Below are positions 17,201 to 64,000 of a stretch of 64,000 nt of DNA, in pieces. Position 1 is the first letter of the stretch; each line of letters starts with the position of its first letter. The DNA comes from Emiliania huxleyi CCMP1516 (lineage: Eukaryota), in the NCBI RefSeq assembly GCF_000372725.1, contig NW_005201791.1:117788-181787 (forward strand). The letters are read 5' to 3'. The notes under the pieces were generated by a model. The model was not told where the DNA came from and ran no database searches. It worked only from the letters and a program-made list of their open reading frames with translations. The position numbers were made by a program, and so were the translations under genes.

Positions 17201-17645
17201 AGCGCGAGCGCACGAGGCGGCGCGGCGGCCGGCGGGGTCCAGCGGGGATGGGTGGGTTGGGGGGGGGGGCGCGGGGGGCGGCGGGGGCGGCGCAGCTCCG
17301 CGCGCGCCTGATGCGCGCGACGAAGAGCGTCTTGTAGGGGTCGCCCTTGATTTTGCTGTCCTCGTTCGGGTCGTACGCCTCGACCTTCGCCTCGAGATCG
17401 GCCTCGCCCTTGGCCTTGCGCTTCTCGGCCTTGCGCGCGCGGCGCGCCTCCTTCGACTCTACCACAGCGGCCGGCTTTGGCGCTGGCGTCGCGGACGGCT
17501 CCTCGAACTCGGAGACGAGGTGCGCGACCGTGCCGTAGCGCGGCATCTTGCGCTTCTCAGGCGCCGGCTTGAATGGGGGCGGCGGGCGAGGCGCGAAGAG
17601 CGCGAGAATCGACGGCGGCAGCGCCTGCGCCACGGCGGAGGACAT
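14246..17645 (-). CDS. SNRNP70: U1 snRNP 70 kDa protein, multi-exon, spans the assembly gap
   Basis: MSSAVAQALPPSILALFAPRPP...YDPNEDSKIKGDPYKTLFVARI; YDTTEAKLKKEFEQVGPIRGIRL; RNP1 KPRGYAFVE; RS/RD-rich tail ending at TGA 14246. Confidence 0.93.
14415..14960. repeat. Intronic minisatellite built from AGGAGGTGTCC/GGGAGGTGGCTAGGGGTGTCC units
   Basis: Directly visible. Confidence 0.9.
15940..16475. other. Assembly gap (N run)
   Basis: Run of Ns. Confidence 1.
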
Positions 17646-18536
17646 CGCACGCGTTTTCTGAATTCTTTTGTCAAGGGGGGCGCCAAAAGAACTCCCTGCC
17701 ATTGAGAGGGCAGTAGGTGGGCGAGCTTCAGGCACGCTCATCTCGATCGTCAAGACGTTGCTACGCGCGGTCTTCCGCGGGGGGAGCTGCGTCGACGGGT
17801 GCGGGACCGCGGCGCAGCCAGTGCCGCGGCGAGGCCTCCGGCTGTTTGCGGCGGGCGGCTTGCTGCTCGCTGCATGGCGAAAAACTCGTCTCGCCACACG
17901 CCAAGGGCTTATGCTCTGGCGAGACGTGAGGCGCATGCGCCCAGGAGGGGAGGGGGCATGTGTAACGACACTGCTAGAGATGCCTTTCGGGGCCCAGAGA
18001 TAAAACTTCTGTGATGCCATGCGTGACCTAGTAGTGTCCCCAGCTATGGGCGTGTCCACGTTGGAGCCAGGTGTGGTGTGGGCGCGAGAATAGCTCCGCC
18101 GTTCATGGAGGCAACCGATGCGAGTCGACTGGTGTGTGTCGTCGTGGTTTCGTATCAAGAATTCTTTCTCCCTGCCATTGCGCGAGGCGCTCACGCATCC
18201 CTCCCTTGGGTTGTGTGTTTTCTTTCTTTCTTTCTTTACGCACCCACGCTCCTCTCCTTAAAATCCCTGTGTGGTGGCGGCGTGCCGTTCTCCCATCCCT
18301 CCCTTGGGTTGTGTGTTTTCTTTCTTTCTTTACGCACCCACGCCCCACACGGCCACGCCAGCGCACCCCCCCCTCTTGCACCCTCTGTGGGCGGCGCGTT
18401 TCGCGACCCGTACCCAATGGTCAATTGTATTAATATTGTCTATTCGTGGCCATGTGTGCAGAGCCGTCCACCGGTGCGACCCGGCCACGCCGGTCGCCCC
18501 CCGACTCGTACAGTCGTACTCGACTGTCGTACTGTA

Positions 18537-20108
18537 TCATGGCACTGGAATGCTGCGGAAGGCCGCCTCGAGCGCCTTGAACGCCTCCTGCGCGCGTGGC
18601 TCCGACGTCTTGTCGGGGTGCACGCGCAGCGCGAGCGCGAGGTACCGCTTGCGGCACGCCTCGTGGCTCGCCTCTGGCGGCATCCCGAGGCACGCACGCG
18701 GCCCAAGTGGTGCGCCGCTCAGAACCGTCGTGATGAGCGCCTCGACGGGCGCATCAGCCACGCTGCCCACCATGCCGCACTCGCCAGCCGCACCGCCGCC
18801 GCTGGCCGCGCCGCCGCCAGCCGTGTGCGCCTCGGTGGCGCGCTCTTGCTGCCGCTGCCGCTGCTGCTGCTGCCTCGCCGCGGCCTCTTGCAGCAGCTCG
18901 CGCTGACGCATCGCCGCCAGCCGCTGACGCTCGTCGAGCTCGCGCTTCGCCTGCGCCTGCGCCGCCGCCTTCCTCTCCTCGGCCGCCTCCTTCGCCGCCG
19001 CCTGCCTCTCCTTCGCCGCCTCCTTCGCCGCCTCCTTTGCAGCTTTCGCCGCCTCCAGTTTCGCGACGTCCAACCCCATTGCCTTTCCGGCGCGGGCGTA
19101 CGCCAGCGCCGCCTCCTCGGCCGTCGCAAAGCGGCCAAGGTACTTGAGGCTGCCGCCCTCCATGATTTGAGCCTTGTATGGCGTGACGCGGTTGCCCTCC
19201 TGGTATGCCACGCCGCGGAAGCCGCCGCGCCCCGCCGTCCGCACCAGCGTCAGGCCCTCGGCCTCCGCTTGCTGCACCGCCTCCGCCGCGCTCATACTCG
19301 GCTGCGGCACGCGCTCAGCCCGCGGCTCGCGCCCAGCCGCCTTTCCGGCGCGGGCGTACGCCAGCGCCGCCTCCTCGGCCGTCGCAAAGCGGCCAAAGTA
19401 CTTGATGCTGCCGCCCTCCATGATTTGAGCCGCGTATGGCTTGGCGCCGCCCTCATGGTATTTAACGCCGCGGAAGCCGCCGCGCCCCTCCGTCCGCACC
19501 AGCGTCAGGCCCTCGGCCTCCGCTTGCTTCACCGCCTCCGCCGCGCTCATACTCGGCTGCGGCACGCGCTCAGCCCGCGGCTCGCGCCCAGCCCGCGGCT
19601 CGCGCCCAGCCGCCTTTCCGGCGCGGGCGTACGCCAGCGCCGCCTCCTCGGCCGTCGCAAAGCGGCCAAGGTACTTGAGGCTGCCGCCCTCCATGATTTG
19701 AGCCGCGTATGGCTTGGCGCCGTGGCCCTCATGGTATCCAACGCCGCGGAAGCCGCCGCGCCCCTCCGTCCGCACCAGCGTCAGGCCCTCGGCCTCCGCT
19801 TGCTGCACCGCGTCCGCCGCGCTCATACTCGCGCGCCCAGCCGCCTTTCCGGCGCGGGCGTACGCCAGCGCCGCCTCCTCGGCCGTCGCAAAGCAGCCAA
19901 GATGCGTGCTGCTGCCGCCCTCCATGATTTGAGCCGCGTATGGCTTGGCGCCGTGGCCCTCATGGTATCCAACGCCGCGGAAGCCGCCGCGCCCCTCCGT
20001 CCGCACCAGCGTCAGGCCCTCGGCCTCCGCTTGCTGCAGTGCCGTCCGTTGGCGCTTTGATGCCGGCTCGTCGGGCGTCGGGGAATTTGGGCGTGGCTCC
20101 ATGTACAT
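18537..20108 (-). CDS. Protein with four tandem AP2/ERF-like domains, a coiled coil and a C-terminal J (DnaJ) domain; intronless
   Basis: Four repeats of AEAEGLTLVRT.GRGGFRGV.Y...PY.AQI..GG....LG.FATAEEAALAYARA, then CRKRYLALALRVHPDK...AQEAFKAL. Confidence 0.88.
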   Translation of the reverse strand: MYMEPRPNSPTPDEPASKRQRTALQQAEAEGLTLVRTEGRGGFRGVGYHEGHGAKPYAAQIMEGGSSTHLGCFATAEEAALAYARAGKAAGRASMSAADAVQQAEAEGLTLVRTEGRGGFRGVGYHEGHGAKPYAAQIMEGGSLKYLGRFATAEEAALAYARAGKAAGREPRAGREPRAERVPQPSMSAAEAVKQAEAEGLTLVRTEGRGGFRGVKYHEGGAKPYAAQIMEGGSIKYFGRFATAEEAALAYARAGKAAGREPRAERVPQPSMSAAEAVQQAEAEGLTLVRTAGRGGFRGVAYQEGNRVTPYKAQIMEGGSLKYLGRFATAEEAALAYARAGKAMGLDVAKLEAAKAAKEAAKEAAKERQAAAKEAAEERKAAAQAQAKRELDERQRLAAMRQRELLQEAAARQQQQRQRQQERATEAHTAGGGAASGGGAAGECGMVGSVADAPVEALITTVLSGAPLGPRACLGMPPEASHEACRKRYLALALRVHPDKTSEPRAQEAFKALEAAFRSIPVP

Positions 20109-45851: not shown

Positions 45852-47018
45852 GGATGCGAAACGGCTGTATACTGTGGCTGGTGGGACGCACGCACGGCTG
45901 GAACTTGCGCCCCCTCTCCTACTGCTCCTGACACCACAACGGGCGAGCGGGTCGGATGCTCGCTCGGCTGCCCGTCGGCCCACCCGCGCTGTCCGTGCCA
46001 GAGGAGCTCTCGGATCTGACCACTCTGACCGAGAGCCTCGTGCGCGCCTCTGCCGCTTGGCGGTCCAGCGGGCAAGGCGGTGCGGCAGCAGACATGTGTA
46101 GGCTGCTTGAGGCCGCAGCGTCGGCGCTGCAGGCGCAGGTGGCAGAGGCAAAGGTGCAGCGAGGGCTGGCGGTGGCATCGCAGACGCTCGCAGCGACCCC
46201 GCACCCCGCGCCTGCCGCCCCTACCGCCCCGCCTAGGTGGGAAAGAGACGAGGAGATGGAACAGCCCGAGGGAAGGAGCACAAACACGTAGACCATGCTA
46301 ACGTCTCACGATCTCACTCGCGATCGAGTAACACCATGTGCACTAAAGCACGACTCCGTTAGCTAACATTCGACAAGGGCCCCACTCTTTCCTTCGCATA
46401 GCGGCCACTCTTCGGATCGCTGGTCGAGCGACCCGGGGGATGCCCCGCGCGCCTGACCCAGGCGCGGAAACGAATCTGCGAGGCGTGGCCGCTCATGCGG
46501 CCCGATGGGGAGGAGGGGAAGACGTAGGGCGTGCTTGCGCGCCTTTCCGAGGCCCCTCCAACCCACCCGCGCTAGTTCTCGGGTTTGACGCATGGGGTCA
46601 CTCCCGCGAAACCCGTGAACTAGCCGGGGCAGTCGGAGAAGGGGCAACTCCGTGCACTGACGGTCGGCCGTCAGAAATCCCGCCTCCGTGGCTCGGGTTA
46701 CACCAATCCTCGCTACCCAACGCGGCCAAAGGATATCCACCTCGAGAACCTCGAGGAGTCCTTTTGGAAAAATTTTGTTGCCATCCCAAACTGTCACTCC
46801 CCTTTCTCCCGGCCGGGGTGGGGCGCGCGCGGGGGCGGCGGGTGTGAGGGATGTCTGTGAGCCCGAGAGCGATATGCCATGTCCGCCTTGCGTGTTTTCA
46901 TAACATCGAAGGCTAAGCTCAAAAATTTTTCGCGGCCGCGCTGAATGGACAATTGACCCAACGTTGACGCGTTGGCACACAGCGCCGACCCTCGGCAGCA
47001 ACTGCTAGCAGAGAAGAC

Positions 47019-50000
47019 ATGCCGCCCGTAGCCCTGCGCGACTACCAGTCCGCAGCTGTGGAGGAAGCCGCCCAGCGGAACCTGCTCGTCGTCCTGCCGA
47101 CGAACGCTGGCAAGACGATCATCTCGGCCAAGGTGATTGAGAACGTCCTCTACGCCGAGAACGAGCGGGGCAGCGGCAAGAAGATTGTCTTCCTCGCGCC
47201 GGGGCGGGCGCTGGCCGTGCAGCAGGCGCGCGTGCTCGAGGAGCAGATCGGGCCGCTGCAGGAGGAGCCGACGAGCGTGGGCGGCGCTGCGTGGCGGCTC
47301 GGCCTGGTTGTCGGCATGGGTGGTCTCGGCCTGCGGGAGGCGGTCCGCTCGCGCCAGGCGCCAGCAACGCCGCCGCGGCGCGACGGGACCACCTCTCCGC
47401 GGCTTCATCTCGGCTGTGCCGCGGCTCTAGGCGCCTGCGACACGCTGCGGCGGTGTGAGGGAAGCAGCACTCTGTTCACGGGTGAAGGCGACGCGCGACA
47501 GGTGCTTGTGATGACGCCGCAGCTCTTCGAGAAGGCGCTCATCCACGCGATGCTGCGGATGGAGGGCGTCGCCCTGCTGGCCACCTCCTGTCGCGCTGCT
47601 GTGAGTGTGAAACCGCCTTCACGGCTCGCGCTGTGAACAGGTCCTCGACGAGGCACACCACATGCGAGGGAACGACCGGTACGCCACCATCATGAAGTAC
47701 TTCTACCTGCCGTGCGGCGAGCGGCCTCGCGTCCTTGCCCTCACCGCCTCGCCGGTCGAGAAGGCGCGAGAGGACGAGCCGGACTGCCGATCAAATTAAC
47801 GACCCCTGAGTTCATGGAGTCCAGTCAACGAGTTAATTGCTCTGACGAGCCCAGTGTAACAAACTAGTCAACTACTGTGACGAGCCGAGTAGAGCACACC
47901 TTCCCTGCGACCACTTCTTTCGTCGGCGCAACAGGACGAGCCGACGCCGCGAGCGACGGACCATGAACAACAAACAACACAGCCCCGCACCCCACTCGCA
48001 GGCGCACATGGTCGAGCCGGACGCTGCCACGTTCCGTACAGAGCTCGCGGAGCTAGAGGGGCGACTCGACTGCGCGGCGTGGTCACGGAGAGTTCCACCC
48101 ACGGTCGCCCCCCCACGCGCTGCCGCGGCGACTCACGAGCAGTTCGCTACGCACACACACTCTTGCCAGCTAGGTCGTCCCGCACGCGCTGCCGCAGCTG
48201 CTGCCCTTCGGCCGCGCTGCAGCGCCGAGCGAGCTGGTCGACGGCGTGAGGCGGGTGCTGGTGTGTGAAAGTAGAGATGGGGCGGGAGGCACGCACGCGC
48301 AGCACACACACTCAGGGGCGAGGGACGGCAGCACAACTCCACTCCGCGGGGCCAGCACGCGCGCGTGGCAAGCCGGCCGGCTGGCACCGACACCCTCCCG
48401 GACCTCCCCATATCTCCCCATATCTCCCCATATCTCCCCATATCACCACGCCGCGGGGCCAGCACGCACGCACGCCCCAAGCTCCTTGGTCGAGCCTTCG
48501 CCAGTTCTCCCACTCAGTGGCGTCACTCAGTGGCGTGCGGCTTGGGCCAACCGAAGGTCGCTCTCCGACCTCGCTCGCCGAGCCTTCAACCCGGCGCAAG
48601 ACGGCCGGAAGAACGCGACCGACACCCCGCCCGGATTTGCAAGCAGGCGCGGGTATGGGACGACGGCACGACGGCGGAGGCGGAGGAAGACATGGCGCCG
48701 CGCCGCAGGGATCGCCGCTCCGTGGAGGTGCGGGACGGCGCGTCTTCACACCAGACGCTGGCTGTGTGCAGGGGCTGCGCGGCGAGGGGGTCACAGGGGC
48801 TGCGCGGGTCACGCCGCAGACGGAGGCGGCGGCGCTGCGGTCTCTTTGCCGTCTCTTTAGGGTGCTCGCCACGGGCTGATCTGCCTTCTAGGCCGCGCTC
48901 GAGGGGAAGGAGGTGGAGGCGCTGCGGGCCGCGTGGGGGCAGTGCGTGGACAAGATCGACTCTATCTGTGGCGGGGGAGAGCTGGGAGGATGGGCGCCCT
49001 AGAAGCGGAGTACGCGCTCTTGTACCAGCGCTCGAGAGGACACGGACTCCGCGGCATCCGTTCGTATTCAACTGTATTCACTGTCCTCTTCTCCGTTGTA
49101 TTCACGCGGTGCTCTGAGGACGCTGCACAAGACCGTCTCCCCGCCCTGAGGTTGGCGTACACTCCGCGTAGGATGGGCGTACTACCACGCCGCGCAGATG
49201 CTCGTGCGAGACTTGGGCAAAGGGACGCGCGCGCTGTCGCCGTGCGAGGAGGGCTGGCCTAGAAGCAGGATGAGGGGGGGTCTCTGTGGAGTCCAGCCGG
49301 CACTCTTGCAGAGGGCACGTGCTCCGCTGCCTCCCGCTCACTCCCCTGGTGTTCGTACTCTCCAGTGGCCGCGTTGTACTCTTCGAGACCTCGAGACCTC
49401 GAGAGAGAGAGAGAGAGAGGCGGCCGCACGCCTCCCCGACCAAAGTCGAGAGTTGACTGTCATCTTTGGCGGGCGACCTGTATTCGTAGCCCCTCGTACT
49501 CACGCGGTGCTCTGAAGCCGCTGCACAGCGCCAGAGTCGATCCGCGTCGGTTGTGGTGTTGACGTGTATCACAGTCCGGCGGGTGTATTCACACGAAGTG
49601 TATTCACACGAAGTGTATTCACACCGCAGGAGAGGGACGAGGCGTGGCCCGCCCGACGCGCAGCCGTCGGCGGCTCCATGGCGCACGCCGAACTCCTGTC
49701 CAAGTGGCGGCGGGAGCTAAAGGAGCGGCTGTCGCGGCTGCGCTGCCCGCCACCGACTGAGCCGGCGAGCGCCTCGCCAAAGCTGCTGGCGCTGGTGCAG
49801 CACTTGCGCGAGACGCGGCCCGCAAAGTGCATCGTCTTCATCACGCGCCGCGCCGCCTGCCGGCTGCTCCACGGATTCCTGTGCGTGGGCCGTCGAAGCT
49901 GAACACGGACTCTTGTATTCCAACTAGCGCTCGAGAGGACACGCATTCCGCTGTACTCGGCCGTACTCGGCTGTGTTCATATCCCTCGTACTCAATCAGT

Positions 50001-53000
50001 GCTCTGAAGACTCTCCACACCGTATTCCCGCCCCGAGGTTGGCGTACTCCGCGCGTAGGAGCGCGGCGCTCGACGTGGGCTGCTGGGAGGTGTGCTGGGC
50101 GTGCCGCGAGGGCCCCGTCGCGATCTCGCGGGGGCGAGGGTCGGAGGGGTATTCGGAGAGGCAGTTTGACGCCGCGCTCGACGCGTTCCGTGGCGAGGCG
50201 GGGCCGGGGCGTCACAAGGCGCTTGTTATAGATAGGTAGAGGGCTCTCGTCTGCACGCATCCCCTCACGGCTAATGACTGCTCCTCCGTAGTCACTCACT
50301 ACGTCAGCACGCCTGCCCTCGGCTAAATGACTGTTCCTCCGTAGTCACTCACCAAATGATGACGACACACCACTATTGCTGACGACACAGCTCGTCTCCA
50401 CCTCACCTCATGTCCTCCTCGTTGATCGTCGCTCACCATATCGCTGCGGCACGAGGTGCTCGTGTGCACGTCTGTGCTCGAGGAGGGGATCGATGTGCCC
50501 TCGTGCGACGCTGTGATCGATTTCGACGGCGCGAGATCCAGCCGAGATCCAGCCGAGATCCAGCCGAGATCCAGCCGAGATCCAGCCGAGATCCAGCCGA
50601 GATCCAGCCGAGATCCAGCCGAGATCCAGCCGAGATCCAGCCGAGACATAGCGTTATCGGTGCGACCACTTGGGGGCGACACCTGTCCAAGAAGGGACGC
50701 CCACGACACGTCCAAGACACGTCCAGGCGCGACCACCTCGCAGCGGCGCCAGCAGCGGATGGGCCGTGCGCGCGCGCAGAACGCGCGGTTCGTCGAGATG
50801 ATCGACTGCAGCGACGAGGGGGAGAGGGCCAAGGCGGAGGCGCGGATCGCGCGCTTGCAGGGGTGGCAGGAGCTCACCGTCAAGGAGCTCGGCGGGGGCG
50901 CGCGGCGGCTTCCCCCGGCGCCGCAGAGTGCGGAGGCCGCCGCTTCGGAGCTGATGAAGAGGGCCATTTGCGCAACCGCGCCCGACGGCCGGCCTTGCGG
51001 TGTGCTGCCGATGGCGAGGAGCAGGGAGCTGCTCGCCGACGTGTACTGCGACTCGCGCTTGGTCCTCGAGGGCGGCGACCCCTAGAAGCGGAAGATGGAC
51101 TCGACTTGTATTCCAACTGGCGCTCGAGAGGGGCATGTAGACTCTACTTGGCTGGTATTCCGCTGTATCCATTGTACTGTATCTGTACCCGCTCGTGCTC
51201 ACGCGGTGCTCGTGACTAGTCCGCAATGCCGTGTTCCCGCCCTGAGAATGGTGGTGGATTCGTCATGTAGGCGGCGACCCCGAGGTCGAGCTCGATTTCA
51301 CCGCCGACGGCAGCCACTTCACCGCTAAGGAGGGCGGGCAGTTCCTCGTTCTGCCGCGGGACGGGACCGGCCCCTTCCGCTGCCAGCTGACTCTGCCGGG
51401 TGTGCTGCTCTGCCGCCCGCCGGGCGAAGGGAGGCTGCCGAAAACGCTTGATTGGACGGACGAGTTCGCCACCAAGGGGGGTGCCAAGGAGCGCGCGGCG
51501 ATGGAGGGCGTCAGGTACTTGCTCAAGATTGGCGTGCTGGACGCGCATTTCGAGATCGTCGGCCGAGCCGCAGCCCTCAGCCAGCTGAGGGAGAGGGCGA
51601 GCGGGCGGCAAGGCAGCACGCGGGCAAACCGGCGCCAGCTGGCCAGTTCGTAGTCGATCGCTATTGCATGACTATTTCCACTGATTTATAGGCGAACCGT
51701 CGCCAGCTCGCCAAGAAGGAGCCTGTCGTGCGCGACTTGCCGGCCTGCTTGTTGCGCCAGGAGCCGGCGGACGCGGAGGCGGAGGGGGAGGCGGAGCGGG
51801 AGGGGCTTTCGGCGGCTCCGTTGGGCGGTGGCGGCGATGGGACGCTGCAGGTCTGGTCACACCCGCTGTTCCTCGACACCGAGCCGACAGGCCTCGCGCT
51901 ACTGCTGCCCGGACCTGTGCCCGAGGCGGCGCGTTCCTTCGCCGTCGGGGCTCAAGGACAGCGCGTCGCGTGCCGGCTGGGCGGACCGCACGCGATGCGT
52001 CTCACGCGTGGCGCGCTTGCGGACGTGGCGCATTGGCTCGTCGGATCGCTTGAGCTTATCCAGGGGGGCTGCGCCGGCGAGCCGTTGCACGCGTCGATCG
52101 GTGCGATGCAGCAGTTGCTGGCTTGGGATCACGTTTCGGGTTCCTTCCGGCCCGACCCACGGCGCATTCTCGACGGCCGGGAGGGGCAACTGCCTGAGCT
52201 GCGCGGTTTCAAGTTCACCAACCGTTGGGTCAAGGATCCTTCCAGCGAGCCGGCTGTATTTGCCGCTCTGGTCCAGGAGATGCTCCTGTTCTACAAGGCG
52301 CCTCTGCCCGTCGTCGTCACTCTCGACCTCGACCAGACTCTGTGGTTTGGTGAGTGCGCCGAGTGGCCGCCGGGCACGTACGAGTCGGGTTCGGCCGCGA
52401 CGGGCGCCTTCCCTCTCCGAATGGTCTCGACGGAGAAGGACGAGACGGGGCGCTACCCTCACCTCGAGCTGCATCGCGACGTGCCTCTGATCTTTGGTGC
52501 GCTGCGCCTTCTCCGCGCCTCTGGCGCCGTCCGCATCGCCATCGCGTCCGCCTCGCCAGCGCGCGGGAGCGCCTTGGCGCTGTTGGAGAAGTTCGGTTTG
52601 ATCGACGGCGAGATGTGGTTGGAGATCGGCGACGGTGACGGCGGCGACGGCAGTGGCGGAGCGACAGCCGAGCCGACGGCACACGGCAAGGTCGGGCATC
52701 TGAGGCGACTGGCGAAGCGGATGGGTGTGCCCGAGGAGGAGGTCCGGGAGCGTTTCGTGCTCTTTGACGACTCCGAGCGGAACGTCGACTCGGTGCGCGA
52801 GGAGGAGCCGGACGGCCTCCACTGCAACGCGCTCGTCCTCGACCCCGCGACGGGGCTGACGGCGGAGGCGGTGGCGCGCGGCCTAGAGCACCATTGCAAA
52901 GAGCTGCAGCGCGAGCGGGAAGACGGCTTCGACGGCAGGCTCACCGAGGCGGAGCGACTAGCGCCCGACCGCGAGCAGCAGCGGAAAATGCGGCAGGACC

Positions 53001-56000
53001 GCCTCGGCAGGAGGGGCGAGAGGCAGGCCGAGGTGGATGGGGGCCGCGCTTCCGACAAGCTGCGCGCCTTGCGCGTGGACCCTGGCTGGTGGGTTGCGGC
53101 GCCGCTCGACGGCGAGGAGGTCAACTGGCGGCTGGTCGAGCTGGCGACCCGCCTATTCAAAACGTGCGAGTGGCCCGGCTGCGGCTCGGACCATCCTCTC
53201 GCTCCGGCCGACGACGACGAGGATGCGGAGTGGGCGTACTGCGCTCTGGCAACTTACGATGCGGAGACGCGCGTGCACTACCAGGTCCTCTCCGAGGTCT
53301 CCTTTTGCCCAGCCGACGGCACGGTGCAAGGCACCGTCCGCACGCGCCAGGCCAAGGTGGCCGAGTCGCCAGCACCCCAGTTCTTAGCGTCCACATTGTG
53401 CATCTACGGGCCCACAGCGCATGCGTTCGTCTCGCTCGGTAGCTTGGCGTCCGTTATGCGTGCCGCTTCTTGAGGACTCGCGCGCGGTACTTACCTCTAG
53501 GTTGCCGAGTCGTCGCGCCGCGCCAACCGCTACGTGTCTCGCGACGGCACCTACGCGACGCGGGAGAGCGGCAGCTAGTGGTCCATGCTTTGTGGTGAAG
53601 GGTTGGGCTACTGCTTCTCAGGCACCTACGCGACGCGGGAGACGGCGAGGGCGACAGGATTCGCGCCCGCCAATGTGCGGCTCCTCCCGCTCCTCTCCTC
53701 GCACCACCGGCCCCTCCGCCTGCTGAAGCGGCTCGTCCACCGCCTTGAGCACCTCGCCCTTGTCGCCGAGCTCGACGGTCTCCGCAGCCTCCCCGCCGCC
53801 GGCCTCGCCGCCGGCCACGGCGAGCCGACACCTCTCTCGTTGCCCGCACGCTGTGGGCGGCGTCTCTTCACACCTCCTGCTGTGAACAGGCCCCTCAGCA
53901 ACGCGCACCTACCCTGCAAGCTGTGGGCAGAGCGCCTTCACGCGCGCACCTGTGAGCAGGCGGCGTCGCCTTCGGCATGCTCGCGGCGGCGCTCACCTCG
54001 CCCGCCGCCAACGCCGAGGCCGCCCTCGCACCAGGGCTTGCCGCTGCTGCTGCCGCTGACGCCGCCGCTGCCGCGCCCGCACCCGGCCGCATGCTGCTCG
54101 ATGCGCGCGGCTGCTGCGACTACGAGGTGGCCGAGTGGGTCGGCGACGCGGTGCTCCGTTTCCTCTCCGTGGCGCACGTGCTGTTTGAGGAGCCGACGGC
54201 GCGCGACACACGCAGCTCCCGCCCGCCGCCCTGTGAACGGCGTCTCTTCACACCTCCGGCCGTGGGCAGGCGCGCGACAAGCAGCTCTCCCTCGCGGCGG
54301 AGCAGATCCTGAGGAACCAGTCGCTGTACGAGAGGGCAAAGGAGAGCCGGCCGAGAGCACTCGCTGCTGTGTGCGTGGGGATGGCCCGCCCTCAGCGAAC
54401 GGCACCACCGGACAGGAGATCCGCCTTCCCGAGCTCGCGCTGTGCCGGCCCTTCGAGGTCTCCGCGACGCTGCCCGAGATGCGCAAGGCAGCGTGCTCGC
54501 TCAAGGACCAGGCCAGCCTCACTGGTCAGTGGGCTCCTCAACTACGAAATGTGGCAACATTCATCCACAATCATGCAACATTGACCTCCATGCCTTGGAG
54601 ATTGTCCGGGGCCCTGAGGCCCAGACAGACAGACAGACTGGGGCCCAGACACACAGACAGCCTGATCAGCCGATGAACTCGTCCGTTCGTTGACTGGTGC
54701 TCGCTCAGGCCAACCTCGTCGAGTCGCTGCTCGGTGGGCTCGCCGAGACGGCGCGGCAGCAGGCGCTGAAGGACGGGCAGGCCGACCCTCTCCGCCGCGC
54801 CCTCGAGGCGGCCTCGCGCCTCTTCAGGGCGGCCGTAGTTCAGTGCGCAGCGAATGAGTGAGGGGCGTCCCTTCCGCAGGCGGCCTCGCACTTCTTCACG
54901 GCGGCGGTGCTGCCGCCGCGGCCGCCGGCTGCTCCTCCGCCTCCTCCGTGGGCGGAGCAGCTGCGGAGGCCCGGCGAGAGGAGGACGCCTCAATGCATTC
55001 ACCAGCCACTCACCTGATGAGTTCATCAATGCCGCGGCCAGGCTCAACGAGAAGATGCCGCCGCCGCAAAGGAGGGGGCGCCAGCCGCCGCCGGACAAGC
55101 AGCTGCAGCAGCAGCTTCAGGAGCAGGCGGCGGCGCTAGTATTGCAATAGTAGCATAGTAAGCGCCTCTTCACGAGGAGCGATTTCATGCCGATAGCCAG
55201 GCTACTAGGCGGGATGAAGCGATGGGCCCAAGGGACTTGCGTGCTGCCCCCCCCCCCCCCCCCCACAAACAAACACGCACACACACACACACACACCGCT
55301 CACCCACGCGCACCGGGCCTTGCACCTTTCATGCCGCGGGGCTCTTGTCTTTTGTACGTGGAGTCGCGACCCTTGCCCCACCACCTTGTGTGTGTGTGGA
55401 GAGAGAGTCACCTTACCTTCCCTTCGAGTGGGGCTATAGGCGGCGGCGCTGTGCTGTGGCCTGGGAAGCGAGCTCGACCTCCACACGGCGTGCCCGGCCC
55501 TGCTGCTCGAAGCCTGCCGCTGGAACGAGCGCGACACCTTCCAGCGACTCGAGTTCGAGGGCGACGCCTTCCTCCAGGAGATCGCCCGAGCTCGCCCGAG
55601 ATCGCCCGAGATCGCCCGAGATCCCCCGAGATTGGCCGAGCTCGCCCGAGGCGCCCCCACCGCGCGCGTCTCTTCACACCCCTTGCTGTGAACAGGCGGC
55701 GGTCTCGCTCGAGCTGGTGGCGCGGTACGAGGGCGACGAGGGCGAGCCGTGCGCGTGAACGGCGCCTCTTCACAGCCTTGAGGGGTGAACAGGTACCCCG
55801 AGTGCGACGAGGGCGAGCTGACCCACCTCCGCTCCTGCCTGGTCAAGAACCTGCACCTCTCCCGCCTGCTGACCCGCCGGTTCGGCGCCGCGCTGGCGCG
55901 CGAGTTTGTGCGCGACGCAAGCGAGGCGCACCGGAGGGCCATCGAGAGCTTCGTCGCCGGCGTGGACACGACCAGCGGCCTGTCCATGCTGGAGGCGCCC

Positions 56001-57524
56001 TTGCTCACGCCTCGGGGGCCAACGGCGAGAGTGCGGCGCCTCTTCACGGCGCCAGCTGTGAACAGGTGCTCACGCTCACGCGGGAGGCCGCCGCCGCAGA
56101 CGCAGCGCCGCCGCCGGCGAGCGCGCCGCGCCACGACAGGAGGGGGCACGACTACCGCAAGCCGCTTGGCGACCAGTACGAGGCGATTGTGGGCTTGGTT
56201 CTGACCGCGCTGCATGGCGACGTCGACCGGACGTGGGCCGTTTTCCGGAGAGACTTCTTCCCGCCCGAGGCGGAGGCGGCGGAGGCGGCCGACGCGGCGG
56301 AGGCGAGAGCGGAGGTGCGGCGGGAGGTGAGGCGGCAGCAGCAGCAGCAGAGGGAGCAAGCCGCAAAGGCAGAGGTGTGCCTGCAGCGGCTTGCCGTCCT
56401 CGCCGCGGCGCCTGCCCCGGCGACGGAAGTGGCAGCGGCGCCGGCAGCGAGGACGGCTGCAGCTTCTGCCGATGCTGACGGCGACGGGTCAGCTGCGGCT
56501 GCGGCCGCCACGCCAGCGGCCGCCACGCCAGCCGCCACGCCAGCCGCCACGCCAGCCACGGTGTTTACCACGCGGTCTGCTGACGAGGAGGCCAGCGAGG
56601 TGTCTTGCATGGAGGCCGAGGCAGCAGCGGCGCCGCAGCAGCGGGCGGCGCACGGCGGCAAGAGGCCGCTGGAGGGGGAGGCGCACGGCGGCAAGAGGCC
56701 GCTGGAGGGGGAGGCGCACGGCGGCAAGAGGCCGCTGGAGGGGGAGGCGCACGGCGGCAAGAGGCCGCTGGAGGGGGAGGCGCACGGCGGCAAGAGGCCG
56801 CTGGAGGGGGAGGCGCACGGCGGCAAGAGGCCGCTGGAGGCGGAGGCGGAGCAGCCGCGGCTCTGCAAGCGGTGCAAGCGCGACGTGGCCGCCTGCACCT
56901 GCCCCACGCAGACGCAGGTTGCACCGCTGCCGGCACCGCCACCTTGGCCGCTACTTCCGTCGGCGCCGTCGTCGTCGGCGTCCGCCTCCGCGGCGGACCC
57001 ACAGGCGACCTCGGCGCTGGCGCTGTCGGCTCTGGCGCCTGCGAGCCGCGGCGGCGGCCAGCTAGACGCCCTCGCGCAGATGTTCCCTCAGTGCGACCGT
57101 GACGTCCTCGCCTCGCTGCTCGCCACCTGCGGCGGGGGGGTCGACAAGGCACGCTCCCCGGATCGCCATCCCTCTCCCCCTACCCTGGATGCGGACCCAG
57201 ATTCTCCCCATCTCTCCCCATCTCTCACCATCTCTCCGCATCTCTCCCCATCTCTCCCCACCTCTCCCCATCCATCTCCCCACATCTCCCCACATCTCCC
57301 CATCTCTCCCCACATCTCCCCACATCTCCCCACGTCTCCCCACGTGAGACGTCTCCCCGCGCGACCCAAAAGCTGCTCTCGAGGCTCTCGAGGTGTGCGG
57401 GGAGAGCTCGCACCGGAACGTTGAAGAAGCGCGTGTAGGCGGCCCAGCAGCTTCTCGAGATGTCGGCCCATGTCTCCTCAGCGCTGCCGCCCAAGGCTTC
57501 CCCGGCGCCGTCGCCGGCACCGGA

Positions 57525-57571
<47 letters not shown>

Positions 57572-57870
57572 TGGCGCTGGCGCACGGGGCGGCCTCGAAC
57601 CCGGTCGGCGCGTTGGAGAGTCTGCTCCGGCAGGATGGCCTAGTACCATACCTCTCGAGTCTCAAACCCAGTGTGGGTTCAGCGCCGTGGGTGGTGCGGT
57701 AGGGGGGCATCGAGCCGTCGCGGTTCTTGCGCGCCGAGGAGTCGCTCGCGTCTCCCTTCTGGTGCGTGGTGCGCGTGGACGGCACGGGCGAGGCGTTGGG
57801 GCGGAGCGGCGGCCATAGCAAGAAGAAGGAGGCGAAGAAGGCGGCGTACCACGACGCGCTCTCGAGCACG
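47019..57870 (+). CDS. DCL: Dicer-like protein: DExH helicase, dimerisation (DUF283-like) domain, HAD phosphatase insert, two RNase III domains, CUE and dsRBD; many introns
   Basis: Helicase: LRDYQ, LPTNAGKT, VMTPQ, VLDEAHH, LALTASP, CIVFITRR, CTSVLEEGIDVPSCD, QRMGRARA. Dimerisation-like: AKERAAMEGVRYLLKIGVLDAHF. RIIIa: YEVAEWVGDAVL (54121) and KDQANLVES. RIIIb: FQRLEFEGDAFL (55539), DEGELTHLRS, KPLGDQYEAIVG. Confidence 0.9.
56648..56838 (+). repeat. In-frame 33-bp tandem repeat, 6 copies, encoding AHGGKRPLEGE
   Basis: Directly visible in the Dicer C-terminal exon. Confidence 0.9.
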
Positions 57871-60800
57871 CGGCTGCGCGAGCTGCTGCAGGAGCGACGC
57901 GCCGCGGTGCAGACCTCCCTCTCCACCGCAGGAGCGGCGGGCGGCGCAGTCGAGCATCGACATCCCGCCGACTCTTTCGCCGGTGGCGCCGCCGGCGGCA
58001 CCACCGCGCTCGCCGCCGCCGGCACCACCGCGCTCGCCGCCGAGGTCCGCAGGGCGGCTCTGCTTGCGGACGTGGAGGGGCTGCGCCAGTTTGCGCTGCG
58101 GCTGCCCGTGTGCGACGGCGGGCGGGCGCTTGGCGTGGAGCTGGGGCAGGGGGGGGTGGAGGCTGCGCTGCGCGGCGAGGGGATCTTCGAGGAGCTCGGC
58201 GAGGGGGAGGGCGGCATGCAGCGCAAGGTGGCCGCCGTCGCAGGCACGGCTCGGCTCGGCCTCCGCTCCCTCTCCCTCCTCGCGCGCAAGGCGGCGGAGC
58301 TCTCGCGCCGCGTACGCCCCTTCCCCCCGCGCCACTCTGCGGGCCGGCTCTTCCTCGGCGCGCTCGAGGCGCTCGCCGACGCGTCGCGCCCGCCGCCGCC
58401 CGCGCCAGCGCTGTGTGTTGGCGACTGCGTGCGGCTCGTCTGCCTGACGAGCGCGCACGGGGCCCCTCTCAACGGCAGCGTCGGAGAGGCGGTCGTGATC
58501 GCGCGAGATTGCCCGAGATCAGCCGAGAGGGCCCCGAGGGTGTAGGCAGAGTCGGGGAGGTGGTCGAGGCGGCTCGAGACCCCGCCTCGCTGCGAGCGGG
58601 GCTGCGCAAGCTCAACTGGGGTGCGCTCAAGGCGGAGGCGGAGGCGGACGGGCTGGCCGAAGCGTCGGTGGACGACGCCGGCAACTCTAGAAGCGGAAGA
58701 CGGACTCTTGTATTCCACCCAGCGCTCGAGAGGACACGCACTCCGCTGTACTCGGCCGCATTCAACTGTATTCGCGCTCTTCGCATCCCTCGTGTTCACG
58801 CGGTGCTCTTCCCCCCCCCGCCGCTCCCCACCACTCCCCTCCCCCTCCTCGCCCACGCCCCTCCTCTCACCGCCGAGTACACTGCATGGTCCTCCCGCCC
58901 CGAGGCTGGTCTGTTCAGGTAAACGCACAACCCCGGGCCCCGAAATCGCACAGTGATGACAGTGACATGCAACACGGGGTCCCAGGGAAGGCGAGCAAAA
59001 ACCTTATCGCGCGCTGTTCAGCACGCAGGCCGCCGACCCAAAGGACGAGCTGATTCGCTTGCTTGTGGCGAGGCGGTCGAGGGTGGGCGTGCGGCTGGCG
59101 ACGGGGGCGCGCAAGGCCGTCCCGCGCTGCAACCTGCAGCTGCTCTGCCTCGGGCACTGCCACCTGGGAGGCATGAGCGAGCCCGCGAGGCTGCTCGCCG
59201 TCTGGCTGCAGATGGCCGGCGGCGACCCGTGCGCGCTGACGCGCTGGCAGTCCAACGGCGTGTTCGACCCGGCGCTGTTTCGGCGCGAGCGCGCGGCGGG
59301 CGAGGGAGGGGAGGGAGAAGGGGCGCCGCCGCCCTCCCTGTCGTCGGTGCACGCTGCTGATGCCGCCGGTGCTAGCTTTGGCTCCCACGTCTGGCTGTGA
59401 ACGGCGTCTCTTCACACCTCTAGCCGTGAACAGGTGGGTGGTGCCGGTGGCGACCGGCAGCTGTGAACAGCGTCTCTTCACACCTCTAGCCGTGAACAGG
59501 TGCGGGCTGGTTCACGCTGTGCATGCTCGAGGCGCACGGCTACGTAGCTCAAGACTTGGTCGCGGCTACGCGCCTCCCCGCGTAGCGGTTCAAGACTTGG
59601 ACCGCTACGCGCCTCCCCGCGTAGCGGTTCAAGACTTGACACGGCCACTGCTGCCCCTCTGACGATTGCACACTTGTCTGTGAGGCCTTTCCCGGAGAAC
59701 GCTCCCACCACCGCCTCGTGTGCAATGCCCCGTGTGTGTGCTCCGCGAGTGCGTGTGCCCCGTCGTCCGTGCTAGGGACGTGTGTGTACCGCTGACTGAC
59801 TGGCAGGTCACGGCCACGCATGTGCGCCCAATCAGGCGCACGGCTACGAGCTCCCCCTCGGCCTGCTCGCCACATACGCCAGGCTGCGCAGGGAGGTCGG
59901 GCCGGAGGGGCGCGGGCTCGACAGCTACGCGGAGCGGCTCGATCTGCTGCGGTCCGCGAGATTGCCCGAGATTGCCCGAGATTGCCCGAGATTGCCCGAG
60001 ATGGCCCGAGATGGCCCGAGATTGCCCGAGGTTGCCCGAGATGGCCCGAGATTGCCCGAGATTGCCCGAGATGGCCCGAGATTGCCCGAGGTTGCCCGAG
60101 ATTGCCCGAGATTGCCCGAGATTGCCCGAGGTCTGCCGCGGCCCACGGGTGCGCCAGGCAGGTGCTGCCTCGACACGCTCCACCATGCATCCACAGCCGC
60201 CGTTGAGAATCGTCTAGGTCCGCCGTGCGCGGAGGTGCCCGCCCTCGAGCTGTGAACAGCGTCTCTTCACGCCTCTAGCCGTGAACAGGTCCGCCGTGCG
60301 CGAGGTGCCCGCCCTCGAGCTGTGAACAGCGTCTCTTCACGCCTCTAGCCGTGAACAGGTCCGCCGTGCGCGAGGTGCCCGCCCTCGAGCTGTGAACAGC
60401 GTCTCTTCACGCCTCTAGCCGTGAACAGGTCCGCCGTGCGCGAGGTGCCCGCCCTCGAGCTGTGAACAGCGTCTCTTCACGCCTCTAGCCGTGAACAGGT
60501 CCGCCGTGCGCGAGGTGCCCGCCCTCGAGCTGTGAACAGCGTCTCTTCACGCCTCTAGCCGTGAACAGGTCCGCCGTGCGCGAGGTGCCCGCCCTCGAGC
60601 TGTGAACAGCGTCTCTTCACGCCTCTAGCCGTGAACAGGTCCGCCGTGCGCGAGGTGCCCGCCCTCGAGCTGTGAACAGCGTCTCTTCACGCCTCTAGCC
60701 GTGAACAGGTCCGCCGTGCGCGAGGTGCCCGCCCTCGAGCTGTGCGGCGCGCACGACGACCGCGTGCGGCGGCGTGTCGACCTGCACGACTCGCCCCCGC

Positions 60801-62316
60801 CGTCGGCGCACCTCGCTGCCGGTGGCGACGGCGACGCAGCCTCCCGCCCCACGGCCCACGCGCGCGCGTTTCTTTTTTACCGCCGGATGTCTGGTTTCTC
60901 TAGCCGACAGCCCGTACAGCCCGGGTGCTGACGACGACGACGACGAGTGCGCTGACGGCGACACCGAGCCGGCCGGCGGCTGGGGCGGCGCCGAGGGCGG
61001 TGGCGAGGCTGGGGGCTTGGGAGCGGCGGAGGAGGAGGCTGCCTCCGCCGCCACCTTCGAGGCGATGCTGCTCCCGTGGGCGGCGGAGGAGGCTCCACGT
61101 GTCGTGGCGCTGCCGCGGCGGATCGACTACCTCAACGTGATAAGCGAGGCGCTCGGAGGGGGCGGCGCGCTCGGCGTGCACGCGCGCTGCGAGGGGCAGG
61201 CGGACCTCGGTGTGGCCTCGCGCCCAACGGCGTCTGTTCACACCTCCGAGCCCTGCCACTGCTGTGAACAGGTGACGCGCCAGCCCATCCTCTACTTTCT
61301 CGTCGGGCCGCGCCTCGCCGGCCGGCGCAACGAGCTCGCCTCGCGCGTCGCTGGCCTCGAGGTGTGCGGCGACGCGCTGCTCGCCGACGCTAGGGTGGTG
61401 CGCGCCGAGGCCGCGCGCCGCGGCGCCGGAGGCGGCGTCGGAGGTGGCGTTGGAGGCAGGGCGCAGCTGTCCCTCCGCTGCGGCGGCGCGGCGCTCTACG
61501 AGTCCTTCCTCGCCCAGCATGGGGCGGGGCTGCTCGGCTTTGTCGTCGGCTGCACGGGCGCGCCGCTGCTCGGGCAGTGGGCCTTGCCTCGCTTCGAGGC
61601 GTGGCCGAGCGAGCGGCCGCCGCAGACTGTGCTGCAGGAGTACCTCGAGCGGCGCGGCTGCTGGTGCAGAGTGCTCTCCGAGCGCGCGTAGTAGTCAACT
61701 ATGAGTCACTAAGAGCGAATCACTAATCAGGTGCAAAGTGCTCTCCGAGCCCGCGTCCCTGCCCGCCGAGCCGGGCCAGCCCCCTCCCGACTTCTTCGTC
61801 GGCCGGTTGGCGACCGACGCGACGCAGGCGGGCCTGGACAACCTCGGGCCATCTCGGGCCACCTCGGGCCACCTCGGGCCATCTCGGGCCATCTCGGGCC
61901 ACCTCGGGCCACTTCGGGCCACCTCGGGCCACCTCGGGCCACTTCGGGCAGCCTCGGGCCACCTCGGGTCACCTCGGGCCAGCTCGGGCCACCTCGGGCC
62001 ACCTCGGGCCACCTGGCCACCTCGGGCCACCTCGGGCCACCTCGGGCCATCTCGGGCCATCTCGGGCCACCTCGGGCAGCCTCGGACCATCATCTCGCGT
62101 GCGCGTCGCAGGCGGGCGTGTTTGTCGGCACGGCGCTGCCGCAGGGCGCGTGGGCGGGGGAGGGCGGCGTGGTTGAGCTGCGGGGCCCTCCGTGCCGCAG
62201 CAAGCGCGAGGCGGAGAGGAGCGTCGCGTACGCGCTGCTGCAGGCCGCGCTGCCGCAAGCGGCAGATTCGCCACCGCCGCCGCTGCTCGTCGAGTCGGTG
62301 ACGCTTCTCACCGCTG

Positions 62317-62361
<45 letters not shown>

Positions 62362-64000
62362 TAGGCGGCGGCGGCGTAGGCGGCGGCGGTGGCGTAGGCG
62401 GCGGCGTGGCGCTCGAGGCGGGAGGCAGCGTCGAGGTGTCCTACACGCTGCAGCTCGAGCCGGACGGCAGCGGCGGCGTCGGCGCGACCCTGGAGGTGCA
62501 GCGGCGGCTCTGCGTCCTGCTTGGCGGCGGACTCCTCCACCCAGAGGTGGAGGGGCTTCTCGCGGATCTGGGGGCGGCGTGGGCAGCGCGCGCCGCCCCC
62601 GCCGGCCCGGAGTCTGCCGCTGGCAGCGGCGAGGCGGCCCTGCATGTCGAGGCGGCTTTGCGTGTGGTCTACCGCGGGAAGCGGCGGCGGTGCAGGCTGT
62701 GGCTGCAGCTGCACTCGGCGACAGCGGCGGAGGAGTTTGAGTGCGTCGCGGCGCGCGACGGCGGGCCATCGCTGGGCGCCCTGCGGATAAACTACGTGTG
62801 CGAGCTGCTGCGCCAGCTGAGCCCGGCCAGCTTGTGCGACGTGGGCTGCGGCGAGGGGCGGGCCGGCACTGCAGCCCTCGTGGGTGGCGTCTCTTCACAG
62901 CTCGAGCCGTGAACAGGCGAGGGGCGGCTGATATGCAGCTTGCTGCGCGGAGGCGGCGCGCCGTCGCTGCGGCGGGTCGTCGCCAACGACGTCAGCGCGC
63001 GCGCGCTGCGTCGCTGCGGCGAGAAGGCGCGCCCCGAGGTGGCCGCGCCGTGCAGGCAGCGCCTCTTCACGCTTCCGGCTGTGAGCAGGTGCGCGCGGCG
63101 CTGGCGGCGCGCGCAGGCGGCGGCGCGCCGTCGGCGGAGCTGGAGTTCGAGTTGCTCTGCTCCCCAGTCTCTGAGCTGCGGCTGGCAGCAGGCTGCGATG
63201 TCCTGACGCTGGTCGAGGTCGTGGAGCACCTCGACCCTCCCGAGCTGCAGCGGCTGGGCGCAGTTCTGCTCGGCCGGTGCCTAATCACTCATTCATGGTG
63301 AGTCCTCAGCAAGTAGCCATAAAATAGGCGCGGCGCTGCTCGGCCGGTGCACATGCACATGTCCGGGACACGTCCGAGCCATGTCCGAGACATGTCGCAT
63401 AGGCGCGGCGCTGCTCGGCCGGTGCGCGCCGCGCGCCCTCATCGTCACCACGCCAAACAAGGAGCACTCGCACCGCCCACCCACCCGCACACGCGCACCG
63501 GGCCTTGCACTTTCAATCCACGCGCGCCGGGCCTTGCACTTTGAATGCCGTGTGCGGCTCCTGTCGCTCACGGGGAGTCGCGAGGGTCGGTTCGGCCCTT
63601 GCCCCACCACCCTCGTTGTGTGTGTGGAGGAGCGTACCTCACACCTTACCTTAGGAGCACAACCTCATATCTCCCCATATCTCCTCATCTCGGTGGGGGA
63701 GATACCTTAGGAGTACAACCTCAACCTGATGGTCACATGCTCGGAGGAGGCGCGCGGAGGCGCCGTTTGCCGCTCTCTCCCCCTATCTCCCCCTATCTCC
63801 CCCTATCTCCCCCTATCTCCCCCTATCTCCCCCTATCTCCGCCTATCTCCCCATACCTCCCCATATCTCCCCATATCTCCCCATACCTCCCCATACCTCC
63901 CCATACCTCCCCATACCTCCCCATATCTCCCCATATCTCCCTATATCTCCCCATGGAGGCGCCGCGTGCCGCGGCCGCGGCGGCGCAGGGCTGACGCTGG
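57595..64000 (+). CDS. HEN1: HEN1-type small-RNA 2'-O-methyltransferase with plant-like domain order; apparently continuous with the Dicer and running off the window
   Basis: dsRBD (GHSKKKEAKKAA); NELASRVAGLEVCGDALLA (plant HEN1 LCD-like); second dsRBD (PPQTVLQEY...SKREAERSVAYALL); FKBP-like VEVSYTL...LHPEVE; methyltransferase motifs PSLGALRINYV, DVGCGEG, EVVEHL and IVTTPNKE|YN. Confidence 0.85.
60219..60744 (+). repeat. 70-bp tandem repeat, about 7.5 copies; each unit is an exon start plus an intron 3' end with AG
   Basis: GCCCTCGAGC recurs at 60241, 60311, 60381, 60451, 60521, 60591, 60661 and 60731. Confidence 0.95.

Follow-up and report, generated by a model that had tools for sequence, protein, structure and literature searches.

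In the 64,000-nucleotide (nt) stretch of the Emiliania huxleyi CCMP1516 genome analysed here (contig NW_005201791.1, positions 117,788–181,787; hereafter the window), the forward strand from position 47019 to the end very probably carries one spliced gene, in which a Dicer with an inserted phosphatase continues into a plant-type HEN1. The gene likely encodes a single protein of about 3370 amino acids (aa) that would cut double-stranded RNA (dsRNA) and methylate the 3' ends of the product. Dicer and HEN1 act consecutively, and the plants and green algae compared here make them as two distinct proteins. The fused polypeptide, already proposed in a preliminary description of this DNA, is supported by a stop-free exon model, spliced contigs, six single-chain homologs and a published automatic gene model. 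All domains belong to known families, and the two joins, Dicer to HEN1 and Dicer to a HAD phosphatase, are unreported in the literature searched: no description of a Dicer-HEN1 or Dicer-MDP-1 fusion was found in it, subscription papers lying mostly outside its reach.

The published model comes from a small-RNA study of 2016, which, in the available excerpts, reported four incomplete Dicer-like (DCL) models and no complete Dicer in E. huxleyi, named protein 110711 as the probable Dicer, and showed a 1187-aa 'HEN1', JGI model 454426, in its S15 Fig (PMC4839659). Model 454426 matches the window's exons from RNase IIIa all the way to its edge, finishes after the motif DHRFEW and adds about 107 residues beyond the window, which brings the whole to about 3370 aa. 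It corresponds to the 3' part of the window gene, from which it differs in skipping many exons and in having neither helicase nor phosphatase. Its RNase III part goes unremarked in the excerpted text of the study (PMC4839659), whose helicase-only 'DCL' models may include the 5' half of the gene. Since the model runs from RNase IIIa to HEN1, the automatic predictor had also joined the two parts. The puzzle of 2016, that a globally important bloom alga seemed to have no complete Dicer, is thereby answered, because the annotation had split this gene.

Gene model and transcript evidence across the link

The gene model was built from splice signals, RNA joints and homology. It spans 47019–64000 on the forward strand with 41 exons (9787 nt, 3262 aa) and no stop, and the predicted domains follow in the order helicase, DUF283, two RNase III, CUE-like, dsRNA-binding domain (dsRBD), La motif, LCD-C, dsRBD2, FKBP-like and HEN1 methyltransferase. 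The features are as follows, where P0001 is a fused relative of 2312 aa described below and runs are the sequencing runs from which contigs were taken.

47019..50800, + strand: DExD/H helicase of Dicer, exons 1–11, with Walker A, DEAH and motif VI (Pfam DEAD E 5.8e-9, Helicase_C E 2.6e-7)
51271..51623, + strand: DUF283 / Dicer dimerisation domain, exon 12 (Pfam Dicer_dimer E 6.7e-4, below cut-off)
51692..53356, + strand: exon 13, an open frame of 555 aa between DUF283 and RNase IIIa that holds the phosphatase
52304..52900, + strand: MDP-1-type HAD phosphatase, motifs I–IV (DLDQT, ASAS, K, FDD; Pfam Acid_PPase)
54090..54968, + strand: RNase IIIa, exons 16–20, acids E, D, N, E
55440..56260, + strand: RNase IIIb, exons 22–25, acids E, D, D, E all present
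56632..56848, + strand: 33-base coding tandem repeat of 6.6 copies in the linker, where contigs break
57060..57465, + strand: CUE-like motif split by intron 57149–57438 (weak Pfam DMA/CUE)
57597..57880, + strand: dsRBD after RNase IIIb, split by intron 57634–57702 (Pfam dsrm E 0.1, likewise weak in homologs; aligns to them at E 1e-8)
58040..59150, + strand: helical segment with the motif HSAGRLF and a small beta-rich insert, which together separate the dsRBD from the La motif (tblastn to P0001; joints in contigs)
59500..60775, + strand: La motif of HEN1, exons 30–32, second half past intron 59952–60708 (first two joints in 4/4 runs)
60216..60744, + strand: 70-base tandem array of 7.5 copies over an intron 3' end and exon start, its last copy being the true acceptor in the model
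61050..62260, + strand: LCD C-terminal part and dsRBD2-like domain, exons 33–36 (tblastn to P0001, E 1.6e-26)
62410..62730, + strand: FKBP-like (PPIase-like) domain (tblastn to P0001)
62760..64000, + strand: HEN1 methyltransferase (DVGCG, EVVEHL, TTPNKEYN), truncated by the end of the window ahead of DHRFEW (TIGR04074 E 0.0015 on one exon)

All 40 introns close with AG and open with GC (26), GT (8) or GA (6). Their lengths range from 61 to 757 nt, and the only outlier in the link region is the 757-nt intron, which is enlarged by tandem repeats. The two introns on which the preliminary description had built the join are present and keep the frame, 57149–57438 as a GC-AG intron of 290 nt and 57634–57702 as a GA-AG intron of 69 nt, and the same-strand exons run on into HEN1, open to 64000, as it had stated. 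It had also found no terminal stop, which is true because the gene leaves the window at 64000 inside the methyltransferase, ahead of the last HEN1 motif. Two of its points stood in part. An AT-rich, promoter-like gap is indeed missing, the lowest 100-base GC fraction being 0.56 at 57.0–61.3 kb against 0.48 ahead of the gene; this is weak evidence, and AT-richness was dropped as a test of gene boundaries, since introns within the Dicer part themselves dip to a GC of 0.47. The proposed CUE motif is weak, with matches below cut-off (Pfam CUE E 0.03, DMA E 0.001) confined to the first exon half, and none appeared in the Pfam scans of the homologs.

Among side observations on splicing, one joint with a GA/GG donor (49246>49628) occurs in 4/4 runs, and many introns open with 4–21 letters identical to the start of the following exon. 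Intron 3' ends and next-exon starts are tandemly duplicated at 60216–60744, 53860–53959, 59400–59499 and 63260–63402, giving rows of spare splice acceptors.

Fourteen runs from five studies, guessed to be of RNA origin though none is registered as such, hold 41–47% of the words of 55–64 kb, and contigs of four of them (one each from four studies) were placed on 46900–60335. The contigs skip introns. Five early introns of the helicase, whose motifs lie at aa 25, 139 and 471, have their joints in 4/4 runs; a single contig piece covers exon 13 in 3/4 runs, and coverage in the remaining run begins at 51814. The Dicer from the helicase end to 56676 is carried by two long contigs (4327 and 4905 nt), and the 1293 letters between contig pieces at 53354 and 56064 equal exactly the sum of exons 14–24. 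The contigs break at the 33-base coding repeat (56632–56848) and at a CCG run (57502–57571), each of which lies inside an open exon. On the two sides of the CCG run the depth is comparable (139/128, 63/67 and 22/31).

Beyond these breaks, the X14 contig (2512 nt) and the X5 contig (2220 nt) join 57701/58013–58473, 58545–58676 and 59029–59367, the former entering at 57701 with 84 letters upstream. The junction 58474|58546 is formed by consecutive pieces of one contig in 2/4 runs, 58676|59029 is present in 3/4 runs, and 59368|59500 and 59531|59836 (contig joints 59367>59499 and 59529>59834) are present in 4/4. The RNA chain reaches a HEN1 domain, because exons 30–31 are the first half of the La motif. 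Of the junctions at about 58.5–60.9 kb, which the preliminary description had held least certain, those up to 59836 are now fixed by spliced contigs; from 59951|60709 onward they follow splice signals, homology and a length check, 60830|60904 being the least certain. After the beta-rich insert 1184 letters are left in the 2512-nt contig and 1288 in the 2220-nt contig, and the leftovers after 59951 (1035 and 1139) fit, as a comparison of lengths and not an alignment, the predicted HEN1 exons to 62239 and 62343; the latter position falls inside a GGC run, where a contig break is expected. The single reading frame is therefore present in the model and RNA-supported to the La-motif exon, and would continue beyond it.

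Fused and shortened relatives

Searches with exon 13 found five longer proteins, among them P0001 (39% identical), which has the phosphatase, two RNase III domains, La/LCD and HEN1 methyltransferase in one chain and with which the window's downstream exons are collinear. The C-terminal part of P0001 in turn found eight proteins of 1271–4046 aa, the query included. Six of the eight (P0001, P0021, P0022, P0023, P0024 and P0025) combine RNase IIIb with the methyltransferase motifs on a single chain and are 38–70% identical to one another, P0023 and P0025 beginning within RNase IIIb. P0026 stops in LCD-C, and P0027 is a HEN1 of Volvox that stands alone. Another eight cluster members, nearly identical to these, are also fused and do not count as independent. 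The label haptophyte-like is given to the relatives on account of P0001 and P0021, which share about 60–64% identity with the Chrysochromulina parva model P0016. The start of P0021 reads as intron sequence at a C. parva intron position, so that its 2406 codons probably form one genomic frame without interruption. P0023 has an additional domain of some 250 aa (residues ~320–570), without a Pfam match, between RNase IIIb and dsRBD.

The HEN1 half is, to judge from sequence and fold, of the plant five-domain type and, rather than standing alone, is fused behind RNase III. Plant HEN1 comprises dsRBD1, a La-motif domain, dsRBD2, an FKBP-like domain and the methyltransferase (PMC4357707, excerpts). 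Arabidopsis HEN1 (3htx) has the domain order predicted here and is the best match by sequence (P0001 1892–2254 to 3htx 603–906, E 7.5e-22) and by fold (Foldseek E 1.9e-28). The comparison with VIA gave Z 25.5 over 531 aligned residues, with a root-mean-square deviation (rmsd) of 25 Å since the domains are placed differently. The structure model of homolog P0028 aligns to 3htx residues 122–933, shows helices and then strands in the region of the helical segment and beta-rich insert, and has a helix, three strands and a helix in the dsRBD2 range, where Pfam gave no match. A La profile made from three relatives that Pfam marks, below its cut-off, matches model aa 2526–2593 at E 1.8e-11; Hen1_Lam_C is weak (E 0.001–0.009) in six homologs. 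The motif DHRFEW, beyond the window end, is present in 6/6 fused homologs and in model 454426. The window HEN1 differs from that of Arabidopsis in two additions ahead of the La motif, a helical segment and a beta-rich insert, and in a cysteine-rich insert in the methyltransferase. It does not fit bacterial Hen1 (TIGR04074), a family marked by a whole-protein score >340 bits and a Pnkp-activating N-domain: the scores were 97–108 bits, with the best stretches in the methyltransferase part.

In a quick HEN1 tree of 56 rows, from which P0158 was left out because its anchor motif is absent, the window, the six fused HEN1s and six fragments form one clade (SH-aLRT 95). The insert, of 50–63 residues with 4–6 cysteines (CxxC; 63711–64000 in the window, 2157–2214 in P0001), marks this clade and may be a zinc-binding module; it occurs in 12/12 clade members having the region, and in 0/13 other haptophyte-like, 0/12 scorable green and 0/4 bacterial sequences. 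In the top 150 of 3353 profile hits, blastp to the RNase III region revealed no RNase III fusion beyond the known proteins, and Pfam found no RNase III in the 31 long or eukaryote-like hits. Other architectures were seen in passing: P0199, P0205 and P0228 are HEN1-like with dsRBDs and C-terminal FKBP and TPR, and P0208 has nine Sel1 repeats before the methyltransferase.

Several observations weigh against a single gene and protein. No one contig spans RNase IIIb to the methyltransferase, the breaks lying at two coding repeats; contig placement ends at 60335 and nothing beyond is covered by RNA; and the RNA origin of the runs is a guess, though they skip introns. The first-intron joint is given as 57149>57442 with unresolved letters between in 3/4 runs, and is in frame only with two letters there, whereas none, one or three lead to a stop before HEN1; in the fourth run the piece stops at 57146, where the canonical junction has its leftmost cut. 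The helicase is absent from all six fused homolog records, so the window is the sole source for continuity from helicase to methyltransferase. A PAZ domain was not detected by Pfam, Foldseek, VIA, PDB profile or Atlas, which is not evidence of absence, the structure model having a predicted local distance difference test score (pLDDT) <50 there; the Atlas search for this segment gave only two leads (0.79–0.80), to RNase III-bearing eukaryotic clusters. Relatives without the HEN1 half also count here. C. parva P0016 and loci L001–L006 end past the helical segment, and the 1.1–9.9 kb downstream contain nothing that matches HEN1; in the P0026 cluster 15/15 listed members terminate at the same residue within LCD-C; and P0002 and P0003, known from protein records only, end after the dsRBD region. 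P0002, P0003, P0026 and P0028 may be truly unfused or may be cut at introns. Finally, a second haptophyte-like HEN1 group may stand alone.

This second group (P0035, P0037, P0038, P0150–P0152, P0154, P0155, P0159 and P0160) has neither dsRBD1 nor the cysteine insert and starts at the beta-rich insert or the La motif; it could represent a stand-alone paralog or exon fragments. The metagenome scan had returned seven loci, six of them C. parva-like, while L007 ends at the dsRBD. In L004, the C. parva-type Dicer stop is followed on the same strand by two long frames of 671 and 760 codons (14401–18782), neither of which matches HEN1.

The fusion is thus not universal among the relatives, the C. parva copy lacking HEN1. 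In the tree of the Dicer half, which has strong support for 1/9 inner branches and includes three short rows, P0002 groups with the window (99/99), P0003 with P0024 (87/83), and the C. parva group, its branches short, with P0001, P0021 and P0022 (82/76). Because the shortened forms sit in three places beside fused ones, and P0026 keeps the La domain, the HEN1-less forms are more simply explained by secondary truncation, which is probable on modest support. A single origin of the fusion in an ancestor of these algae, followed by its shortening in some lineages, is probable, and the fused and cut-back relatives offer a natural comparison.

Could two adjacent genes, a Dicer and a HEN1, only appear to be joined? 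The missing full-length contig would allow it, as would the relatives whose Dicer ends here, but the joints from dsRBD into the La motif are spliced in frame, both contig breaks lie in open exons, so that a Dicer message ending there would be stop-less, no fused-clade homolog that reaches upstream needs a methionine-led HEN1 start, and six homologs are single chains; we regard this explanation as very improbable. A fused gene that mostly yields separate Dicer and HEN1 units, through alternative splicing (57148; duplicated acceptors 59433/59499 and 60216–60744), early polyadenylation or proteolysis of the linker, is unlikely too, if less remote. The joint 57149>57442 and the duplicated acceptors speak for it, as do the low-complexity linker of about 350 aa after RNase IIIb and the fact that relatives have lost the HEN1 half more than once; against it, contig depth is level across the link, and in homologs the link appears to lie within one exon.

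The Dicer half and its embedded phosphatase

The order of helicase, DUF283, tandem RNase III and dsRBD is that of the plant DCLs (Arabidopsis DCL1 7eld, DCL3 7vg2 and DCL4 9kby), whose structures are the best PDB matches of the family profile, and of animal Dicer. The window protein differs from them in a HAD phosphatase before RNase IIIa, in having no detected PAZ, and in about 1200 aa more that lead into HEN1. DUF283 is also aligned in the PDB profile match, and Dicer_dimer is above cut-off in homolog P0002. Pfam Ribonuclease_3 reaches E 0.006 on one RNase IIIb exon piece and E 1e-17 in whole homologs, with two such stretches in each of P0001, P0021 and P0022. The intact motifs suggest that the RNase III pair would dice dsRNA, into duplexes of 21–25 nt if it acts as a typical Dicer. 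The second motif of RNase IIIa (54709–54730) reads N..E in the window vs D..E in 9/9 homologs that reach it.

In other Dicers, the platform and PAZ occupy the segment between DUF283 and RNase IIIa. Here a phosphatase of the MDP-1 type is, judged by sequence and fold comparison, inserted in the middle of the Dicer between the same two domains, and platform-like motifs, as we take them to be, flank it on both sides, so that it would interrupt the platform domain. The preliminary description did not mention it, though the Pfam match is strong (Acid_PPase, E 2.4e-12, 47.5 bits vs a cut-off of 27, in a scan of 24 exon pieces). The structure model of exon 13 has a mean pLDDT of 53, with 65–85 over most of the phosphatase domain. 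Its best Foldseek match is MDP-1 (1u7o, E 9.5e-8), alternatives being far weaker (Pnkp1 4xru E 0.02, T4 PNK E 0.28), and VIA aligned 160/162 residues with MDP-1 (Z 16.5, rmsd 3.0; next HAD Z 10.9). HAD motif I is kept in 5/5 homologs covering the domain, and the embedded phosphatase is probably active. MDP-1 (HAD IIIC; 1u7o, 2wm8; PF12689) shares the fold and motifs I–IV. It is a free enzyme of 164 aa, whereas the window version is a domain within a Dicer, and two homologs score 37 and 47 bits on TIGR01685, below its cut-off of 53.75.

What the phosphatase acts on is less clear-cut. The reading we prefer, tentatively and with rather less than even confidence, is that it trims phosphates at RNA ends so that these can be diced or methylated. 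Mammalian MDP-1 is described as acting on protein or a small metabolite. There is about an even chance that the embedded domain does likewise, on a phosphorylated partner, on Dicer itself or on a metabolite, or is a structural stand-in; the closest solved relative being MDP-1, titled a hypothetical phosphotyrosine phosphatase and well ahead of Pnkp1 and T4 PNK, fits this well. Its conservation in the middle of Dicer in 6/6 sequences covering it, unfused copies included, argues the other way, and PIR-1 is a precedent, in the available part of the source, for an RNA phosphatase of another fold in the Dicer pathway (bioRxiv 10.1101/2020.08.03.235143). As a second architecture not found described, a phosphatase embedded in a Dicer points to an end-processing or regulatory step.

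Proposed reaction and comparison with known systems

On the single-protein reading, the phosphatase may prepare RNA ends for dicing or methylation, and the RNase III pair would cut the dsRNA. From RNase IIIb to the La motif the window gene has a single dsRBD, which may stem from either Dicer or HEN1; a profile of 10 green/plant HEN1 dsRBD1 sequences gave no match to it at E <0.05. Because it is placed where Dicer's last and HEN1's first dsRBD would be, it probably serves both halves and would pass the duplex to the tethered HEN1. There the duplex may be sized between the La domain and the methyltransferase, as in Arabidopsis, and the HEN1 motifs suggest that the dicing product would be 2'-O-methylated. 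A bolder version is a heal-dice-seal enzyme, in which the HAD phosphatase cleans RNA ends, and may replace PAZ as the end anchor, RNase III cuts, and the shared dsRBD channels the duplex to the tethered HEN1, by which it is methylated ahead of its release; HEN1-less lineages such as C. parva would then have unmethylated small interfering RNAs or a separate paralog. We consider this version doubtful.

The fusion fits known biochemistry, because Arabidopsis HEN1 binds DCL1 (PMC4357707, excerpts). That binding is in trans, whereas the window HEN1 is fused behind its Dicer. Hand-over of the duplex has otherwise been studied via weak protein contacts, and the natural fusion provides a single-chain system for it that also permits the coupling of methylation to dicing to be tested.

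In bacterial RNA repair, Pnkp works next to Hen1 on RNA ends. C. elegans PIR-1 with Dicer would be an analogous case of a phosphatase beside Dicer on RNA ends, as far as the excerpted source goes. Pnkp/Hen1, Pnkp1/Rnl/Hen1 (4xru) and PIR-1 differ from the window gene in being separate proteins, of other phosphatase families or of distant HAD likeness, and the window gene has no ligase.

Far upstream of the gene, an assembly gap lies at window positions ~15900–16450, with a GC of 0 over several hundred bases.

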